A stretch of 63,117 nucleotides of DNA, filler included, from Collodictyon triciliatum (lineage: Eukaryota): assembly GCA_043381765.1 (NCBI GenBank). It is 6 parts of 6 records of this genome, joined end to end, with 100 filler letters (N's around TTAATTAATTAA, not from the genome) between each part and the next. Parts side by side here need not be neighbours in the genome. Positions count along the whole stretch, not along the records: positions 35,270 to 46,929 come from JBHJMP010002340.1; 5 more parts are not named here. One strand, written 5' to 3'. This document shows, piece by piece, positions 11,673 through 58,782 of the stretch (the first letter of the stretch is position 1; each line of letters opens with the position of its first letter). The translations under genes were made by a program, and so were the position numbers. The notes beneath the pieces are model-generated. The model was not told the DNA's origin. It did not search any database and was given only the letters and a program-made list of their open reading frames with translations.

Positions 11673-11772
11673 NNNNNNNNNNNNNNNNNNNNNNNNNNNN
11701 NNNNNNNNNNNNNNNNTTAATTAATTAANNNNNNNNNNNNNNNNNNNNNNNNNNNNNNNNNNNNNNNNNNNN
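11673..11772. other. Artificial contig linker (N44-TTAATTAATTAA-N44)
   Basis: 100-nt spacer with stop codons in all frames, identical at five positions in the window. Confidence 0.97.
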
Positions 11773-38959: not shown

Positions 38960-40554
38960 CCAAACAATTCCTTTATATATTCCATAATGTTTTTTCATTT
39001 GCAGGCGAGACAGACACACGAATGAAAGACAACTACTACAAGCTATCATTAGACTGCATCGAGCGGTATATTTTTTAACAAGAAAAACAAAAAAAAATTA
39101 TTTTCATTTATTTAATAGATTCATAGAATAAATAAATTCTGACAATTTATTGCAATATATCGTAAATCTTTTATACAATGGCAAATAATCTTTTTATTTA
39201 TCTTGTTCACTATTATACGGTGTGTTAGAATTACATTTCTTTTTCTCTTTCTAACGCGGTATTGAAACTTCTGTGAAACAAAGGGCAGAGGCCTTGAAAA
39301 GCAAAATCGTGCAACAAAGTTCACGTCCAATACCCAGCGCACCAGCAGCACCAAACTACCCCACAGGCCCCAACCATTCCCCTATAAACTCGTTGATTAC
39401 GCCTGGTCATCGTGCTATCCCCCGAAGGGCCGAGCACCCAAAAGAGCCAGCGCAAAGCCAAAGTCCGCACAACGAAGGTTATCCTGACTATCCCGTTTAT
39501 CCATCCGCGCCACCAGCGGCCTCGGCAAATCACTTCCCAAACAGCAGCATCGACCCAATTCAGAATGCAATCGGCGCCACAGTCTTGGTGCAGTACAAAA
39601 CATCTGCCGGTTCGGGCGCCATCATCGACAGGTCGGGTCTGATTGCCACGAACCACCACGTCATCAAAGAGTGCCAGCCAAATAGCAGCATCATCATCTC
39701 CGTCACGCCCTTGGACCCTCAAAACTCCACAGCCAGACCAAAGTATGTTGCCATGCTGGTTTTGTCTGACCCTGGTCTAGACTTTGCCATCCTTCGCGTC
39801 CGCTGTTGTCTTGATGGCAGTCCTTTATCGTCCGACCCCATTCAGTCTCATATTGAACTCGGAGATTCAGATGAACTTAAGATCGGCCAAGACATCGCGG
39901 CCATTGGTTACCCTGGGGTTGGTGGGAATGCCGTTACATACACGGTAACTTTTTCGTGTAACCAAGGCTAATGATACTTTCCCTGTAAAAAGAAAAGAGA
40001 TGAAAAGAGATGAGAAGACAAATTCTTTGAATCGCTTTTTGATTTCCCTCCTCCATTTCATGTTCCCTTCAATTATTAAAAAACCCCTTTTTTTGACTTC
40101 TAAGAGAGGAACAGTTTCCGGCTTTTTACCCACCGAAAAATTTATTAAGACAGACGCGGAGGTAAATCCAGGAAACAGGTAAATCGCTCTCATATACAAG
40201 AAATTCCAAAATATATGAACGATTCATGAATAATATTTGCTTTGAAACCTTTTCTATCAATCTTCCGTTTTTTGAAACCTTGAATGAAACATGAAATAGC
40301 ATGAAAGGGACACCCTTATAAATATTGCTGTATACGTAGTTGGCAGATACACTTTTTCTTCGTTTTTTTTTTTTAAAAAAAAAATAATAAATTAATGCAG
40401 TGGCGGACCAGCCATCAATACTTCAGGGAAACTCATCGGTATCGTAACAGCTAATTCAACCGGGTCAGAAACCCACCCCTCCGCTGGGACAGGAAAACTC
40501 GGACTGGTTCGCCCCATCAACCTTCTGAAACCACTCATATCAAAAAGTTTTTAA
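38631..40554 (+). CDS. Trypsin-like (HtrA/S1C-type) serine protease with N-terminal MIT-like helical domain, no PDZ, no signal peptide
   Basis: Triad motifs are 'GSGAIIDRSGLIATNHHVI' (His), 'DFAILRV' (Asp) and 'TDAEVNPGN|SGGP' (Ser codon split by the intron 40179-40400); also 'LGDSDELKIGQDIAAIGYP'. The N-terminus 'ARDEALKYIEEKEYELAVSKFTAAADLFLQA...YYKLSLDCIERAEALK' follows a MIT-like pattern. Stop TAA ends at 40554. Confidence 0.85.
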
Positions 40555-40899
40555 AAGCTGGCGCTACGATAACGAAAAGAATATATCTAAGCCATATCCT
40601 GCATTGAAGAATAATATCTATAAATTACTTTCCCCTTTTGATGGAAACAACCACCTAAACCTTTTTCTTTTCTTTTCTATTTGCCGTAATAAACTAAAAA
40701 ATCACTTTGCAAAGATTGTTTCCGAGTTGTGGTGAAACCAAACAAGGCTTTGACCTAAGTAAATCTGGAACATAAATATTTATGCAATTAGAATTTTCAA
40801 TAATTTATCTTAATACTAGAATGGGTATACCAATCTTTCGAAAAAAAAAAACCCGGTGCGCTAGTATACAAGGTCTCAATCCACTTTTTTCACAAAGAT

Positions 40900-42870
40900 C
40901 GTGTAGTGGTGAAGGCTGCCAGGGAAGACCCGACAGCATATTGTTTTAGAGCAAGGTGCATGCATATTTTGAAGGGTTAAAAGAACTTTGTTGAGTATAT
41001 TTTTAGCGCTGTTAAAGTCCCTTGTCAAGAATACACTTTGTTTGCTTTCTGAGCGATTACATTATTTTAATACGAGGCATCTATACAGCTTTTTTGTATT
41101 TCCTTTCGGTGTCATATATTCCAGTTCTTTTTCGCAGTTGCAACACATCTTGGAGGTTCTAAATTCATCTACGCTGACCGTTTCAAAACGTTTGGATAGT
41201 ATTTTTTGTAATCCTCCTCCAATTGTTTGCATAAAATGTTTCATCGAGATTTTCTGCTCCAGTCTCCATACGCCAGTACAACATCCTTGCCAAATGTCTT
41301 TTCGATTCAGTCCATAAACAACTGTTCCCTTCTTTTTGTATTAACGTACTGTCTCCATCTCGTCTTTCGAAAAGTCAATTGTTCATAAAATCTGGACAAT
41401 TCTATCTGGAATCTTGATTTCATAGATACATATTTTCGAAAAAAAAAAACATAATCGACTGTGCATGAATGTTGTTTACTCAGTTCTGTCTCTAAATCGA
41501 TTAAAGATACTCTTAATGTCTCAAACCGCTGATTCTCCTCAAAAGTCATGACACCAAAAGAAACAGCACTTCGTAAACCTGTTGCCATGCATATCCCAAA
41601 ATGATTGTACTTTTTCTTTTCTTTTTTTCTCGCGCAAGAGTATTTTTTGATTTTTAAGAGATTAGCTATCATGTCTTCTTTGGTGTGCCATGTAACGTAA
41701 TTTCTTACCTATATCATCCACTATGTAAGCAAAATTAAACTTGCCTGCATCTACTCCAACTATTTTTTTTTTGTCGCTAATAAAGATAACTGCTCTTCGG
41801 AAAGTTCATCTATATAAACATATTTTTGGGTTTTTTGATTATATTTTGAATTTTGAATTTGAAATAGCTTTCTTTTCAAATAATAATGATACTGCCAAGG
41901 CGTGTGTTTGTATCATGTATTTAAAATTCTAGTATCTTTGATGAAATATCCTCTTCTTCATTTCAAAGAACTTATCCCATAGGGTCTCTTTGCGTTCTGA
42001 TATATTCTTCATTAATGATGTTTTTACAGCTGATACTAATATATCTATCACACATGCAGTATCTAGAGTAATATGACATGGTATATTGTTAGTTCTTATA
42101 GAGATTGGTTGAAACAGTCGAGTTGCAATGTCCTCAAAAAATGCAATTCCTGTAAATCAAACATGGTGCGTACTTCTTTGGATTGACTTTGATGTCGTAT
42201 TCGATACCATTTACCATATCGCTGGGAATGATACGATTCAAATGCATTATAGCCCATTCCTTATATTGTTCCGGTATTTCGAGTTTCTTGAAGATGGCTT
42301 TTTTTTTAAACTTAAGTAACTCTGCCTTTTTTATTGCTTCCATAGTATTCTCATCTTTAGGAACTGTTTGATTTATATTGCACAATGACCTCTTTACAAA
42401 AAATTCCTTAATGTTATTATGATAAGCTGTTAACATTTGTTCCGCCAGGTACCGTAATACATGAGACAGTCCAACCAACGGAAAGCCTTCTTCTCGGGAC
42501 AGAAGATATCGAAAATCATAGAGATAAAAACTCATCATGTCATCTCTCAAATCTGGATTTTTTAAACTTGCGTATCTATCTTGTGAAACTATTCCGACTG
42601 TCTTTAAAGCGTACAAAAAATAAAAACAAAAAAAAACAAAAAAACAAAAATTATTTCATCGATTGTTGGGAGCTGTTGTGGTTTCAATTCGTAATATCTT
42701 GCAAACATATAAGTGATGGTAACCAAATTATGACACAATATAACCGTATCGTTGATTTCGTCATAGTCATCCGGATTCTTTACAATCGACTTTAGAGATG
42801 TTTTCACATTTCGATAGTCTGGTTTTACGAACTTTAGATTATCAGACTCGAGACGTTTTCTTTTCTTCAT
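40900..42870 (-). mobile_element. Degenerate Fanzor (eukaryotic TnpB-family RNA-guided nuclease) pseudogene
   Basis: Ordered motifs across frameshifts: 'MKKRKR...VKTSLKSIV', 'LRYLAEQMLTAYHNNIKEFF', 'LFQPISIRTNNIPCHITLDT', RuvC-I 'IVGVDAGK' (D at 41749-41751), 'KLRYMAHQRR', 'ETELSK', 'YGDWS', RuvC-II plus Zn finger 'VDEFRTSKMCCNC' (E at 41164-41166), and RuvC-III 'RDFNSAKNI' (D at 41017-41019). Several stops and frameshifts interrupt it. Confidence 0.85.
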
Positions 42871-44667
42871 GTGAAAGTATTTGGTTTACTTTTTCCTTTA
42901 GAAAACTACCGAGTTTTCAATTTTAGTAAAACTTTAGTCAATCAATCGATTTAGTAAAACTGCATAAAATCAATTTATGTAAAATTAAGCATCTACCGAG
43001 ACTCTCAAAATGTGCGCATTGTGGCAAACAAACACACAAAGTTTTCTATAAATTATTTGAGACAAGACGCTGAGAGCTGATTCGGCGAGTTCGAAAGGAC
43101 AGCCGTATAGCCATCGCGACTGAAAGTCAACATATCGGCCCAACCAACATGATTACCGCCGCAAGTGTGAATAGTATGCTTTTTTGAAATGCATGTTTGG
43201 TGGCAGGTTTATATGGTGGGTTCTGTCTGGGCCAAGACAACAGCTTGTTTGTATTTTTTTTTTTGAATTTTATTGATGTTGATAATATTGCATAAATTGA
43301 AAATAAAATACAAATTGATTAAAGGAATAAAATGAGATTATTAAGTATTTTTAACCTTATTATATATAGACTAATCATATATTATATTATTCAGGTTGTT
43401 TCTTGGATTCATCAAAACTTGCTTTTGTCAATCCAGATTTAATTTAATGGTTGTCTGTGCAATAAACTGTTATATATGGGTACACTTTCGTTGTATAAAA
43501 AGTGGTGTGTCTTGAAAGGGATAAAACCAAGTTCGTCACAAGCTCTGCAATGAAGTTTATCCATTTACAGGCTGAATGAGACCGAAGAAAAAAATGAAAG
43601 ATAAAAGATAAAGGAAAGAAAAAAGAAAAAAGATAAAGATAAAAAAATTCTCACAAACGAACAAACCCACAAACAAATAGACAAACCTTGGAAACTAATT
43701 TTCCATTTCCTTTCGCCACGGTTGTGTTAGATACCATCATGTAATTCGACAAATGTGTCTATTGTGCGTCTGATGCCCACTTCTTTATTTTCTTTTGGTG
43801 ACATTTCTATCGCAAGAGGCAGTGTGTGGGATTATCTCTGTTCTCACGCGGTATCTTTTGGCTCCCTCTCACTTCAAAGTCCCATTCTTATTTTATTTCT
43901 CTTGTTCCTTTTTGGCTTGATGTCCCAGTATCACAACAGTCGCACCGATGAGGATGGTTTCGCACATTTGATCATATTCTGCCAGGTCCGGTCATATAGC
44001 CTAAGTCCGGGCTTCTGGGGTCAAAGTTACAGTTAGATTGTATCCTGGCGTGTTGGTTTGCGATTGCCTTTTCTATTGCGGGTATTCTGAGCCTTCTCAT
44101 TATTGAGAAGTTTTATTCGAGGATGAGGTGTTTCTGGGTCACCGTACTGCTTTGCAGTGGCGTCTTGCGCAGTGCGTTAGGTTTATACTGTTTTTTTTTT
44201 TCCCCCTCTCTTCATTCGAATCGAGAGTACGGTTATAGTGTGTACGCCAGTTCCACGGAGAAAAGCTCTTCCTGGCTCAACAGTGTTGCATTACAGCATG
44301 TTGCAAAAGAATACATGGCCATCTTGTGGGGAGAGGCGTGCTGCTTCTTACCTTGAGGAACAGTTTCACTCTGCCAGTTATGTATTTGAGTTTTTCTTGC
44401 GGGGTCGCTTCCTCTAGAGTCCTTCGGACCGAAATATAAAAGTATAATGAAAGAAGAAAAAAAAAAAAAACAGATGCGAAGGGACGCTACTTGTGTGATT
44501 TCTCGGATTGCACCCAAGCGCAAGAAAACAATTAAGAGTGTACCGGATCGTCGGGTCGAAAGAAAGGAAAAGAAGGAGAAAGTGAGAAAACTAGACAGAT
44601 GAGAAGACAGAAAGAAACCCTTGGGTTAGGAGAGGTTAACGCGCCATACAGGTCTCCGCATCCAGTC

Positions 44668-45756
44668 ATGGATTTTGACGCAGTGCTCGATCTTGAAGCA
44701 GAGTTTCTTCGAGAAGGAGAGAGCGAAGGAAAGCGCGAAGGAGCGGTGAGGATCTCTTGCTAACTTTTTCCTTTTGCTCGACTGCTGTAAAGGTCGTCTT
44801 TTTGATTGGAAGCAACCTCATTCCCTCGCTTGTCTCAGCCCGCCTTTTTGGTCGCGGAAATGACATCAAATCTATCAACCCGTGCTAACTTTTTACCTTT
44901 CTTTTTATTTTGTTTTACACCCCAACAACATCCTTAGAAAAATGGCCTTGAAACAGGCTATCGTATCGGGCTGGTTAAAGGCAGAGAAGTTGGTTGGGAG
45001 CTGGGCTGCTTCCTCGGTTTGCGTAAAGTTGTAGGTCTCCAATGCGCCTCAAATCCACAGCACGCACTATCGAAAAAGTGAGCTGTTTGGCTTTTGCTTC
45101 TAAATACCGTGTGTGTCATTCGAAAAAAGAAAAAAATAGAGGAACAGCTTCCATTGTAGTGTTATTGCTATTTGATGTTTATTTGTTCCATCTTTCTTCG
45201 AGAAGAAATGAAAAGAAAAGAAAAGAAGATATTGCTACGTTCATCGTCATTCAAACATTTTAAATGCTTGTTGCATATCTCCAGGCTTGAGAAACCGCTG
45301 CAACAATTTGATGCTCTCATGAAAAAGTTTCCGATGAGAGACCCAACCCAGGAAAATCTCTTCACTATCCTGGACCAAATCCGAGGCAAGGTAAACATCA
45401 CTTTCTTTGAGCAGTAAGTGTGTGAGCTAGACCCTGTGATTATTTGAGCCTTTCAATCGCTTTGTTACATACCTTTTCTTACACTTTTCTCGGGAAAAGT
45501 GTTTTTTAAGGAAATCTTATTCGCAAAGATGTTTTTGTTGGTATTATTTAAAACAAGCGTCCCATGTCCGATATGTTTAATCAACATGTCGTCTAAGTGG
45601 TTGTTTTCATTTGAATACTTGTTTCTTTTTCACTCATAGGTGAAACAAATATGCTCGCTCATCGGAATTTCCTATGCTGATTTAATTGGAGACCACCAAT
45701 CTTCCTTCTCTTCTGAAGACCTCCGCGCTCTAGCCAGCTCAGTCTTGAGTTTCTAA
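44668..45756 (+). CDS. LTO1: LTO1/ORAOV1 (Yae1_N-domain adaptor for cytosolic Fe-S assembly on ABCE1), 4 exons
   Basis: Spliced product MDFDAVLDLEAEFLREGESEGKREGA|KNGLETGYRIGLVKGREVGWELGCFLG...|...KFPMRDPTQENLFTILDQIRGK|VKQICSLIG...VLSF*. It shows the Gx3 repeat motif and a C-terminal L-S-F tripeptide matching the [LIM]-[DES]-[WF] CIA-targeting signal. Confidence 0.8.
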
Positions 45757-46035
45757 CTTCAGATTTCTATTTTTTTTTCTCTCTTTCTATTTCTTTTGTT
45801 ACAATTCAAATAAAAATAAAGGAATTAACATAAGCATTGATTCAAAATGTTTCGGAATCCAATTTACTACTTTAGGTCAGGCGCAAAATGGGGACATAAA
45901 ACTCTGATATATATATATATATATATAACATGAGCACAGACCCTAAACATAATTGAGTAAAAATGTACATTTTTTAAAAATTTTTGGTAAAGAAAAAAAA
46001 TTAAAAAAACTGAAGATATCGAGCAAGGTTTTCAT

Positions 46036-46929
46036 TTATTCTCGAGCGAAGATGAGATGAGGACGTTCATCGGCCAGTTTCAGAATAAGCTCCCTACATA
46101 AAATAAGAATGATGTGGTCGATTGACTCGACTTAATGTAAAGAAACCTCGTTGATGGCGAGTAGGTGATGCAATTCTGTTTACATGACTCTTTATTTCAA
46201 TCAATAATATTATTCTGTATTATCATTAAATTAACATATTTTAAAAGAAATTCATTATAATTTTGTTTGGTCAGGTTGCCCGAATGATGAGTATAGTTTT
46301 ATTACCCAAAAAGCGTGTTCGTCCAAGCAAACCAGGCGCGAGTAAATCGTGAGGAATCATCCTTCCAAAAGCTTTCATGCAGAAATCCAGTACCAGCACT
46401 GCTTTGTTTGATGGTCTCAAGGCACCAGGCAATCTCTGCGTCGTCTGTGCTTGTCAATGCTACACAGTACCACCATGTTGGTTCAGACTTTTGATAAACA
46501 TTTTGTGTAAATATCAGAACAAGTATATATCTTGAAAATAGAGTACAATGTATCCATTTTTATTATTATTACTATTAAAAACCAAATAATAATTTGCTGT
46601 CAGCCAATCAAACTAACAAACCCTGCATGATTATTGCCATGGGCCAAATCCAACCGCGACCGATATGAGGTCCTCCAATGCCCCTTTATGTATGTATGTA
46701 TGTATGTATGTATGTATGTATGTATGTATGTATGTATGTATGTATGTATGTATGTATGTATGTATGTATGTATGTATGTATGTATGAATGAATGAATGAA
46801 TGAATAAATGAATGAATGAATGATAGTTGCGATTGCAATAGAATATCACATCAAAGATACGACAAATGGAATTATATAGATGTATGTTCGATTGCATCGG
46901 TCTTGCTTACTTTCCAGCAAGTCCCTCAG
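46036..46929 (-). CDS. Glycoside hydrolase family 125 (exo-alpha-1,6-mannosidase-like), 3' fragment truncated by contig end
   Basis: Exons give 'GIGGPHIGRGWIWPMAIIMQ-ALTSTDDAEIAWCLETIKQSSAGTGFLHESFWKDDSSRFTRAWFAWTNTLFG-ELILKL', the characteristic GH125 C-terminal signature. Confidence 0.85.
46687..46822. repeat. (ATGT)n-(ATGA)n intronic microsatellite
   Basis: Direct inspection. Confidence 0.9.
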
Positions 46930-47029
46930 NNNNNNNNNNNNNNNNNNNNNNNNNNNNNNNNNNNNNNNNNNNNTTAATTAATTAANNNNNNNNNNNNNNN
47001 NNNNNNNNNNNNNNNNNNNNNNNNNNNNN
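46930..47029. other. Artificial contig linker
   Basis: N44-TTAATTAATTAA-N44. Confidence 0.97.
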
Positions 47030-47300
47030 AAAGAAAAAGAGAAAGAAAAAGAGAAAGAAAAAGAGAAAGAAAAAGAGAAAGAAAAAGAGAAAGAAAAAGA
47101 GAAAGAAAAAGAGAAAGAAAAAGAGAAAGAAAAAGAGAAAGAATTTAAAGGACATTAAGCAGCCATGGGATGAATTTTTTAATTTTATTCTGTTTTCATG
47201 GAGCATCCTACTGGAAAAAAAAAACAGAGAATTTTCCATTTAAAATAATATAGTTAAACAATAAAATATTGCAATCCATTTACAGATATAACTTACCATG

Positions 47301-50300: not shown

Positions 50301-53300
50301 CTCTCATCTCAGCCCAGAATGCGACGCCACTTTCATGTAGCTTGTTATCCTTGCAATGTTGGTGCGCATTTTCACAAGCCACCCAGCAGTCCCAGTTTTC
50401 AAAGGATGATTTTTCAGCATGCCTAACAGCAGCTGTTTTGTAAAGCTGAATAATGGCTTCATGCTCTTTCTTTTCCTTCATTAATCGGACAATCTTGTCA
50501 ATTTGTGAACCATCTTTCAGTGACATGATTGTCTTAGTCTCCTTTCTGATAGCAGCTGCCTTCTGGATGAATTCAACGACTTGGTCCAATCTAGATGCAT
50601 GAAAATTAGTTATTTTAGATTTAATTCTTAATTTATTAAAGCATTCGATCTTAGTATTCAATTTTAATGAATAAAGCGTTAAATTATACCTTTGAAGCTC
50701 AAAGTTGGTTCTACCAATACATTCAAGAGAAGTTCCATAATCAACATGCTTTTCACCCAATGTTCTCACGCGAATATCTAGTGTCTTCGTATAGGCCTCC
50801 AAAGCACCCTTGAAGCTAAAAAATGGTTTGAGTAAATGAATTGCTTTTTTCAATTCTAAATAGTAAAAATAATTGATAATATAAGATACTCTTTCAAATC
50901 ATGGTTGATGTCTCCAATCATTTCATAGCAGGCCAAAACATTCGGATGATTTTCACCCAAGGAATATACGAAAATATCTAGCGATTGCTTAAATGACGAT
51001 AAGGACTCAGTTTTCCTATATTGGATAATAATTATTTAATATTTAAAAATTAAGCCAACATCTCCACCATCCTGCACAAAATTGAAAGGAAGAATAAAAA
51101 AAATATTTAAAAATTAAAATTGTATTATGCAAAAATCACAGTTCCCTAAGTAGAATATACAATGAAAGATATAAAGCTAAACTACATCTTGAAAAAACTG
51201 AAAAGTATAAAGGAAAAAAAAATTATTTTTACAAAATTCAAAATCAGAAATTCTGACCTTCCACTGGAAAGATGAACGTTTGCAATAAACTGGATTGTCG
51301 AGGCAACAGATGCATGCTTAGCTCCTAATGATTTTTCAAGGATAGATTTCGCCTTCTCGTAGTTTTCAATAGACTCTTCATACCTTAATGATTTAATCAT
51401 ATTAATCTTCCAAAAAATGATAATCATATTTAAAACCAGTTTGAATCCAAAGCCAACACCCCCCCTCGGTCCTGCACAAAAGTTGAAAGGAAGAATAAAA
51501 AAAAAAACCAGTTTGAATCGAATGAATATGTGCTACTTTTTCCCAGCCAGAGAGACATGGCCATAGTTCTGGTACGATGTTGCGACAAGAGGATGCTCGT
51601 TTCCGACTCTCCTTTGGCGGATTTCCATGGCCTTTTTGTATTCAACCAGAGCTTGCTCATTCCTATCATAAAAATTGATCAGCATAAATATATATATATA
51701 CAGATTAAAAGGTAGAAGAAAATAAAATACAATAAAAATAAAATGGTTACTTTGACTGCACCACATAGATGTCTCCGAAGCGGTCATGTGATTGGGCCAC
51801 TTGCAAGTTGTTCTCACCCAGTTGTCTGATTCTCAACCCCAGTGATTTTTTGTATTCACCGAGGGCTTCGTCAATTCTATGTAAAAGAAAAATCAGGACA
51901 CCCTTTTGAAACATTATTCATAATTTATTTTACAGTTGAAAGCGAGCCTTACTTATCTTGTTGCTGGTAGATAATTCCCATCTCTTCATGAATGGTGGCA
52001 ATAAGCAGGATGTTATACTCATTTTTCTCAACTGAATTGAGACATTTCTTGTAGTAGACCATGGACTCGGCCCAGCTGTATAATTTATTTTTATTTTAGA
52101 AAAGTTAGCATTATAAACATCACGTCATGTCCTGATTATATCATTATTATTATTTTTTACTTTTGGAGGTTCTTGTAGACACGGCCAAGATGCAGGTAAT
52201 TTGCGACCTTTGAATCTGTAAATTGATGGATTATTGAACGTATCCATAAATAAACTCATATTCATGACATAAATGATTCAAAAGATAAAATATTACATAC
52301 CTTTTGTTTGATGCTTTCCAAGACGCACATTCAGAACAGACAACAAAAATGAGTTCTCAAAAGACTCCAAGAAAAATTCAACAAGCAGGTCTCCCACTTT
52401 ATCCAAAGACTGAAAAAATTTAAAAAAATAAAGGTAAATGATGATTGATGATGAGATTTTGTGAGTAGTAACCTTCAAAAAATTAATAATAAATCACTCT
52501 AGCCAAGCTTCCATAGGCATCTTTGTAGTTTGCCACTCCACTTGCGTTGATTGCTCTCCAGCATGTAAAGAACTCGTAGCGATAGCGACCACGGAGCATG
52601 ATGCTGATAACCTATGAAATATTTTAATTAATGAGTGAATGCCGTTTCATTATGACTGAAAATAATTGAATAAAATAAAAATATAACAATTACATGTTTT
52701 TGCTTCATGTATTCGACAAGCAATTCAAACGAACTGCCCTTCAGAAGCTGGTAGCAAATCTCAGCAGCAAGCTCTTCGTCCGCGTCATCAGCCTCAGAAT
52801 ATTGGCTAAACAGCCATTTACCGTATTTTTCGTGCATTTTTTCCATCTCTTGGTTTTCGGAGAAGTAAACCTTTTCGGTGGTCTCCAAGAGCAGCTGGTG
52901 GAAGTACATGTATCTATGATAAGCAGTAATTAAGTGTCTATCCAAATAAATTATACCGAAGGCACCGAATAACGAACAAAAGGATTGAGAAATAACACCA
53001 ACCTTCCATTGCGCACGAAAAGCGACTCGATGAGAGTAAAGAAGAAGGATTTCCTATTTGAATAGATACAAATAAATAAAGTTATATATAAGGTAAAATA
53101 ACAATTCGATAATTACTAATAGAGTAAACGATAAGCGAACCATTCAGCAAGCTCGAATCCTGTGCCAATCGCATCTTTCATGTACATGTCCAGATCACCT
53201 TCACTCAGGCCGATGCGGGAAACAAAGAGAACCTTCATCGAGAGAGAGACATACTCGACCTTCATTGTCTCTTTTCCATCAGATGAGGTTACTGTACAAA

Positions 53301-58682: not shown

Positions 58683-58782
58683 NNNNNNNNNNNNNNNNNN
58701 NNNNNNNNNNNNNNNNNNNNNNNNNNTTAATTAATTAANNNNNNNNNNNNNNNNNNNNNNNNNNNNNNNNNNNNNNNNNNNN
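58683..58782. other. Artificial contig linker
   Basis: N44-TTAATTAATTAA-N44. Confidence 0.97.

Follow-up and report, generated by a model that had tools for sequence, protein, structure and literature searches.

A decayed Fanzor1 gene copy of a many-copy family in a Collodictyon triciliatum genome

Fanzor1 proteins are RNA-guided DNA cutters that are borne by transposons in eukaryotes and giant viruses and that belong to the TnpB/Cas12 branch. Solved Fanzor1 proteins include those of Spizellomyces punctatus (SpuFz1), Parasitella parasitica (PpFz1), and Guillardia theta (GtFz1). Passages of Bao and Jurka (2013; PMC3627910) describe mariner elements in which Fanzor1 is accompanied by a transposase, PGv-1 and PUl-1, and an element, PUl-4, that has Fanzor1 only, with mariner terminal inverted repeats (TIRs) and TA duplications. 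The same passages single out two extra conserved Fanzor1 residues, G500 and E536, and propose large viruses as spreaders of Fanzors. The catalytic site of these proteins is rearranged: according to passages of Jiang et al. (PMC10530073), the canonical RuvC-II Glu is Pro or Gly in Fanzors, and an alternative conserved Glu about 45 residues away is essential for cleavage. N-terminal NLS activity was seen in 21 of the 22 Fanzors whose testing is described there.

Here we compare these systems with a locus in a stretch of 63,117 nucleotides from Collodictyon triciliatum (hereafter the window). For 40500-43300 we examined the minus strand together with its translations in three frames. We are highly confident that 40902..42870 on this strand is a broken, non-functional Fanzor1 gene copy, one decayed member of a many-copy family. 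An initial annotation had proposed a Fanzor relic on the basis of sequence motifs, and all of these motifs were found on the minus strand at the places it gave. The features of the locus are listed below from the 5' to the 3' end of the gene; P0001 is the relative to which the copy was aligned.

42871..43500, minus strand: 5' leader, also multi-copy (depth 125-450 in X1 and X2)
40902..42870, minus strand: Fanzor1 pseudogene, colinear with P0001 residues 1-642, with 7 frameshifts and 4 in-frame stops
42853..42870, minus strand: start codon and basic, NLS-like stretch MKKRKR, the same in P0001
42617..42650, minus strand: T/G-rich low-complexity expansion that disrupts the frame; the first frameshift site
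41743..41760, minus strand: RuvC-I motif VGVDAG, Asp codon retained (G-x-D-P-G-K in the family consensus; the Pro is Ala here)
41512..41610, minus strand: 99-nt in-frame segment that starts with GT and ends with AG; candidate intron or translated linker
41256..41273, minus strand: AYGDWS strand, with Gly at the canonical RuvC-II position, as generally in Fanzors
41149..41172, minus strand: VDEFRTSK, with the alternative catalytic Glu and the TS motif
41059..41145, minus strand: zinc-finger (TNB) region, first pair CCNC intact, second pair broken
41134..41145, minus strand: CCNC, the first zinc-finger pair
41059..41082, minus strand: RCLVLK*C, the region of the second pair
40996..41025, minus strand: RuvC-III motif TRDFNSAKNI, Arg-Asp retained
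40835..40901, minus strand: 3' tail of the repeated unit, the expected site of the omegaRNA end and of the right end

P0001 is an intact protein of 648 aa in which all catalytic and zinc residues are present. It was the sole relative found among 171 candidates (E 2.9e-44, 57% identity) in a word-indexed search that took the 155-aa fragment encoded at 42134-42601 as query and covered longer proteins only, and it carries the precomputed Pfam label PF26935.1. P0001 matches GtFz1 (E 2.1e-28), PpFz1 (E 2.7e-24), and SpuFz1 (E 3.7e-23), with matches that cover its N-terminal half and its C-terminal half. Searched against the window by tblastn, it matched this locus only, in five colinear pieces spread over three frames. 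A frameshift-aware alignment then placed residues 1-642 of its 648 from 42870 to 40902, with 385 of 639 aligned residues (60%) identical in the window copy.

An exhaustive HMMER search with the C-terminal fragment, its stop written as X, yielded 234 cluster representatives at E<=1e-3, including 38 at E<=1e-10. From 20 full-length relatives we built an alignment, A1, whose profile is 617 positions long. This profile matched PpFz1 at E 1.1e-90, SpuFz1 at E 6.5e-86 (profile positions 7-605 of 617), and GtFz1 at E 1.2e-73; the next match after the three Fanzor1 structures was TranC, at E 0.0035. The profile also matched 8 of the 1601 six-frame ORF pieces of the window (E 7e-28 to 1.5e-4), all of them on the minus strand at 40879-42885 and in profile order, covering positions 1-597 of 617, and it matched none of the pieces elsewhere. 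The matches are thus colinear at this one locus, far beyond chance. Taken alone, the window fragments match the solved structures weakly (E 8e-4 for GtFz1 and 0.059 for PpFz1), so the strong link to Fanzor1 runs via the relatives and the profile. Pfam matched one of the eight fragments, as Cas12f1-like_TNB (E 0.0016; 19 bits, with the cut-off at 26.3), and gave only E 0.11 for P0001 itself. The earlier assignment to Fanzor1 is borne out by P0001, at 60% identity, and by the A1 profile, which matches the solved proteins at 1e-90 to 1e-73. A search for Fanzor or TnpB profile matches, the outcome on which the initial annotation had staked its reading, returned the solved Fanzor1 structures as strong matches.

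The ancestral gene is thus shown to have coded for a protein of about 648 aa that started with basic residues, had an N-terminal half of the Fanzor1 type, and contained both a split RuvC and a zinc finger of the C4 type. The order within the split RuvC is Asp, Gly at the canonical Glu site, the alternative Glu, and Arg-Asp. Among the A1 relatives D364 (20 of 20 rows), G521, E555, R603, and D604 are invariant. D364 stands in G-x-D-P-G-K, G521 in Y-G-D-W-S, and E555 in N/D-E-F-x-T-S, and the spacing from G521 to E555 in the family is 34 residues. Judged by alignment, D364, G521, E555, and D604 of the family correspond to the rearranged Fanzor site and to the G500 and E536 of Bao and Jurka. In the window copy the codons for the RuvC Asp, the Gly, the alternative Glu, and the last Asp are all preserved. 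At the codon level, then, the D-E-D residues are intact, as had been claimed, with the qualification that the Glu of VDEFRTSK is the alternative Fanzor Glu and that the canonical position holds Gly.

The basic stretch MKKRKR is present at 42853-42870, as first annotated, and is identical in P0001; by analogy with the tested Fanzor N-termini described in passages of PMC10530073, it would have served as an NLS. At least four K or R in the first 12 residues were counted in 59 of 65 viral ORFs (from the best 79 loci, described below) and in 11 of 20 A1 rows.

The window copy is dead, as initially proposed, because it bears 11 disabling lesions in its alignment to P0001. Seven are frameshifts, near 42621, 42145, 41841, 41771, 41634, 41249, and 40971; these are slips of 1-2 nt, and the alignment has no intron-sized gap. 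Four are in-frame stops, at 41931, 41664, 41309, and 41064, all of which face aligned residues of P0001 and one of which lies inside the zinc finger. The gene is now in about eight pieces, and not in the four short ORFs first described. The T-rich expansion at ~42617-42650 had been noted before; it coincides with the first frameshift and falls where P0001 has no residues. Both CxxC pairs of the C4 zinc finger can be aligned between the TS motif and RD, and the second is mutated. The previously reported stop within this pair is a TAA at 41062-41064, opposite the Glu of CKEC in P0001, and the first Cys of the pair has also become Leu. In both P0001 and P0002, a second predicted protein, the pair is intact and reads CLICKEC. 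No uninterrupted frame with all four zinc ligands is present in the window copy; its 7 frameshifts, its 4 stops, and the loss of one zinc ligand make nuclease function impossible for it.

The window copy belongs to a diverged multi-copy family. At a threshold of at least 80% identity, 614, 596, 759, and 323 contigs from four public sequencing runs were placed on 40300-43500; the identity of most was 80-95%, and a minority reached at least 99%. Summed depth was ~0 in the bin 40728-40834 and ~100 or more from 40835 to 43403-43500 (X1 and X2). The repeated unit ends near 40835, ~40-65 bases beyond the coding end, and reaches at least 630 bases upstream of the ATG, past 43500. Some contigs were one base short near 42141 or had an extra G near 41245, which are two of the frameshift sites. 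These two lesions, missing from other copies, are therefore private to the window copy. P0002, which is 136 aa long, 74% identical to the C-terminal fragment, and partly in the wrong frame, is a decayed sibling copy. Neither self-blastn nor tblastn of P0001 found a second copy within the window, and scans of JGI metagenome contigs with P0001 alone and with a two-row alignment, A3, found no relatives. The 5' leader of the unit is hypervariable at 43241-43379 (139 bp) and 42906-43069 (163 bp), where other copies lack the segment or have it swapped for short unrelated letters.

Scanning IMG/VR with A1 gave at least 600 pattern matches, and 555 among the 600 listed encode relatives. We kept the best 80 of the 555 listed, which represent 79 loci, many of them on contigs labelled as giant-virus MAGs. 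In 65 of these 79 loci the Fanzor1 frame is open, at 451-654 aa. Pairs of loci share a unit of ~2.45 kb amid unrelated flanks; it begins ~510 bp upstream of the ATG and extends ~215 bp beyond the stop. Nine such loci have TIRs of ~37 bp with TA on both sides (9/9), and their unit contains a K/E-rich small ORF of 116 aa and Fanzor1, with no transposase. The six loci that are closest among those listed (L001-L004, L034, and L062; 43-47% identity to P0001) share the same TIR core and have, upstream, a divergent gene that in L002 and L004 is an open frame of 343-346 aa with HTH and DDE_3 domains in both; L034 has only a partial homologue of the transposase. The DDE_3 transposase is of the Tc1/mariner-IS630 type. 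Across the 79 loci from the best 80 of 555 listed, a homologue of this transposase was found in the fetched flank of 28, and a homologue of the small ORF in 43.

The small K/E-rich ORF, of ~116 aa (L007 2536-2886, L004 2442-2948), has no Pfam match. It lies just upstream of Fanzor1 and inside the TIRs, in elements with and without the transposase, and looks like a conserved third gene of the viral elements. The 3' ends of the viral elements (L007 4846-4929, L002 4800-4952, and their groups) have conserved stem-loops up to the right TIR, with variable loops and, by eye, apparent compensatory changes (CCC/GGG vs CTCC/GGAG). These stem-loops, which do not align to the window, are likely to be the subfamily's omegaRNA scaffold. 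For the window copy itself, neither the Rfam search nor the fold of 40835-41060 revealed an omegaRNA.

A quick maximum-likelihood tree with 57 rows pairs the window copy with P0001 (support 100), inside a 29-row clade (support 97) in which 20 of 29 rows are viral. The sister of the pair is the L034/L003/L001/L002 clade (SH-aLRT 91, unstarred); among the relatives listed, then, the nearest clade is found in giant-virus contigs. Because the tree is unrooted and its viral rows were pre-selected as the best matches to the query, no donor and no direction of transfer can be read from it.

The initial annotation had reported no transposase adjacent to the gene, and our searches agree. Viral transposases gave a best E of 1.9 by tblastn on the window, and the viral small ORF gave no homologue there at E up to 10. 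Of 26 upstream ORFs (42985-46559), one matched Pfam, as the GH125 exon of a host gene, and the other 25 (42985-46535) had no Pfam family. The viral TIR motif had 0 matches in the window at up to three mismatches, and a single 12-mer TIR match with one mismatch, at 50685, is no more than chance. Between the flanks, a short-word inverted-match search gave A/T runs only and no TIR pair. The inverted-repeat pair 40881-40905 / 43481-43505 was considered as TIRs and rejected, as one of its arms falls within the coding end and the two are oriented inside-out. No TIRs, TSD, or TAM were found for the window copy, whose left end lies past 43500, where the depth profile stopped. Nor did the window yield a DDE transposase or mariner TIRs with a TA duplication, which, with the left end not reached, does not prove their absence.

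Because no transposase gene lies beside the window copy, and because viral relatives occur with and without DDE_3 in the same TIRs, the copy probably remains from an element mobilised in trans. The mariner-type design is seen in the closest listed viral relatives; the window copy showed no sign of it in these searches. The precedent of viral Fanzor1-only elements and the lack of a transposase make plausible the Fanzor-only, non-autonomous element of the initial annotation, of which no ends were found at the window copy.

In the explanation that we favor, a DNA transposon of a many-copy, diverged family left a Fanzor1 gene in a protist chromosome, and the gene has decayed. An intact copy, if it behaved like characterised Fanzor1, would bind an omegaRNA whose template is the gene's 3' end together with the element's right end. 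It would reach the nucleus via its basic N-terminus and would cut guide-matching DNA beside a TAM, helping the element to persist.

It is very improbable, in our estimate, that the locus instead belongs to an endogenous viral element, a giant-virus fragment that has integrated, and is not a cellular transposon copy. Such an origin would fit with the nearest identifiable relatives being, among those listed, in giant-virus contigs, and with the virus-integrated Fanzor elements described in passages of Bao and Jurka (PMC3627910). However, the flanks look cellular, with a trypsin-like peptidase gene that ends at ~40554 and, upstream, a GH125 exon and a WD40/Sel1 gene, and the 25 other ORFs of 42985-46535 are without any Pfam family. 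The viral TIR motif is absent from the window, and the repeat is bounded at ~40835 and represented by hundreds of diverged short contigs, which is the pattern of a dispersed family.

The window is eukaryote-like throughout, with a GC content of ~33-43% and long ORFs with cellular domains (TMEM260-like, GT92, RasGEF/PH, trypsin-like peptidase, and WD40 with Sel1). The trypsin-like (Trypsin_2) peptidase gene, at 39255-40554 on the plus strand, has at least two exons and stands tail to tail with the Fanzor unit, ending ~280 bp from the unit's right boundary. Between the GH125 exon and the WD40 gene, at 46600-46906 and 46974-47243, are long simple-sequence arrays: one of period 4, whose protein reading is TYIH, and one of GA/GAAA type. 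Pairs of 44-N runs occur at 11673-11772, 23401-23500, 35170-35269, 46930-47029, and 58683-58782, with a regular spacing of ~11.7 kb; they look like masking rather than assembly gaps.

The window copy and P0001 have ~33 extra residues (31-33 in P0001) after the RuvC-I strand and before the helices that follow it. None of the 21 viral rows has this insert, and in 28 of 34 other rows it is short or missing. Removing 41512-41610 restores the spacing of the family (...KKEKKK joined to VSLIDLE...). In the window copy and in P0001 alike, the segment keeps the frame and has no stop. It is a candidate for either a spliceosomal intron or a translated linker.

That this 99-nt GT..AG segment could be an intron is one point in favor of a gene that is still alive, its breaks being introns, programmed frameshifts, or sequencing errors. 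Introns are possible in Fanzor genes, according to passages of PMC10530073, and two of the frameshifts are absent in other copies. We nevertheless find a living gene hardly credible. Each frameshift is a slip of 1-2 nt, and the alignment shows no gap as long as an intron; the 4 stops stand opposite aligned P0001 residues, one of them in the zinc finger, which has lost a Cys as well; and the lesions that other copies lack are private mutations of the window copy. Just as hard to credit is a locus whose protein is dead but which is maintained for its RNA or as a regulatory element, such as the source of an omegaRNA-like transcript or of a 3' end signal for its neighbor: the 3' tail does lie ~280 bp from the convergent peptidase stop and ends in a T run, but there were no Rfam matches in 40300-43700, the fold of the 226 bases 40835-41060 is no better than shuffles (z = -0.67), and nothing sets the window copy apart from its decayed siblings.

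We conclude that 40902..42870, read as a decayed transposon-borne Fanzor1 gene, is a real but ordinary relic. It represents one more lineage of an already characterised family, and the earlier suggestion that its intact relatives could be new programmable nucleases was overstated. Wherever the family was active, dead Fanzor1 copies are to be expected, and one of them matters little in itself. The lineage is defined by P0001, its intact 648-aa relative. That this lineage is nested among very abundant giant-virus copies agrees with the old proposal of viral Fanzor spread, and the viral elements with and without transposase in the same TIRs could help to define the omegaRNA and TAM of the subfamily. 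More speculatively, the window copy and P0001 may form a Fanzor1 lineage of their own in a protist group that has been little studied, a lineage that was exchanged with giant viruses, has since shed its mariner-type ends and transposase, and has gained the 99-nt segment as an intron in the RuvC region, with intact P0001-like members that are active RNA-guided nucleases; we think this full history rather unlikely.

Compared with SpuFz1 (8GKH), PpFz1 (9CF0), and GtFz1 (9CER), the family profile has full-length homology, and the likeness extends to the rearranged RuvC site (the Gly, and the Glu in E-F-x-T-S), the zinc finger, and the basic N-terminus. In contrast to these solved proteins, the window copy is a pseudogene, and the lineage that it forms with P0001 is only distantly related to them in sequence. 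The design of the elements of Bao and Jurka is that of the closest listed viral relatives (TIRs, TA on both sides, and Fanzor1 with or without DDE_3), and viral and cellular copies are intermingled in the 57-row tree, whereas no transposase, TIR, or TA duplication was found in the window. With bacterial TnpB (ISDra2) and Cas12f, the window lineage shares a split RuvC and a zinc ribbon (TNB), to which the weak Pfam match to Cas12f1-like_TNB also points. It differs from them in that the canonical RuvC-II Glu is lost and apparently replaced in function by the downstream Glu, and in its long Fanzor1-specific N-terminal half and its eukaryotic or viral setting.
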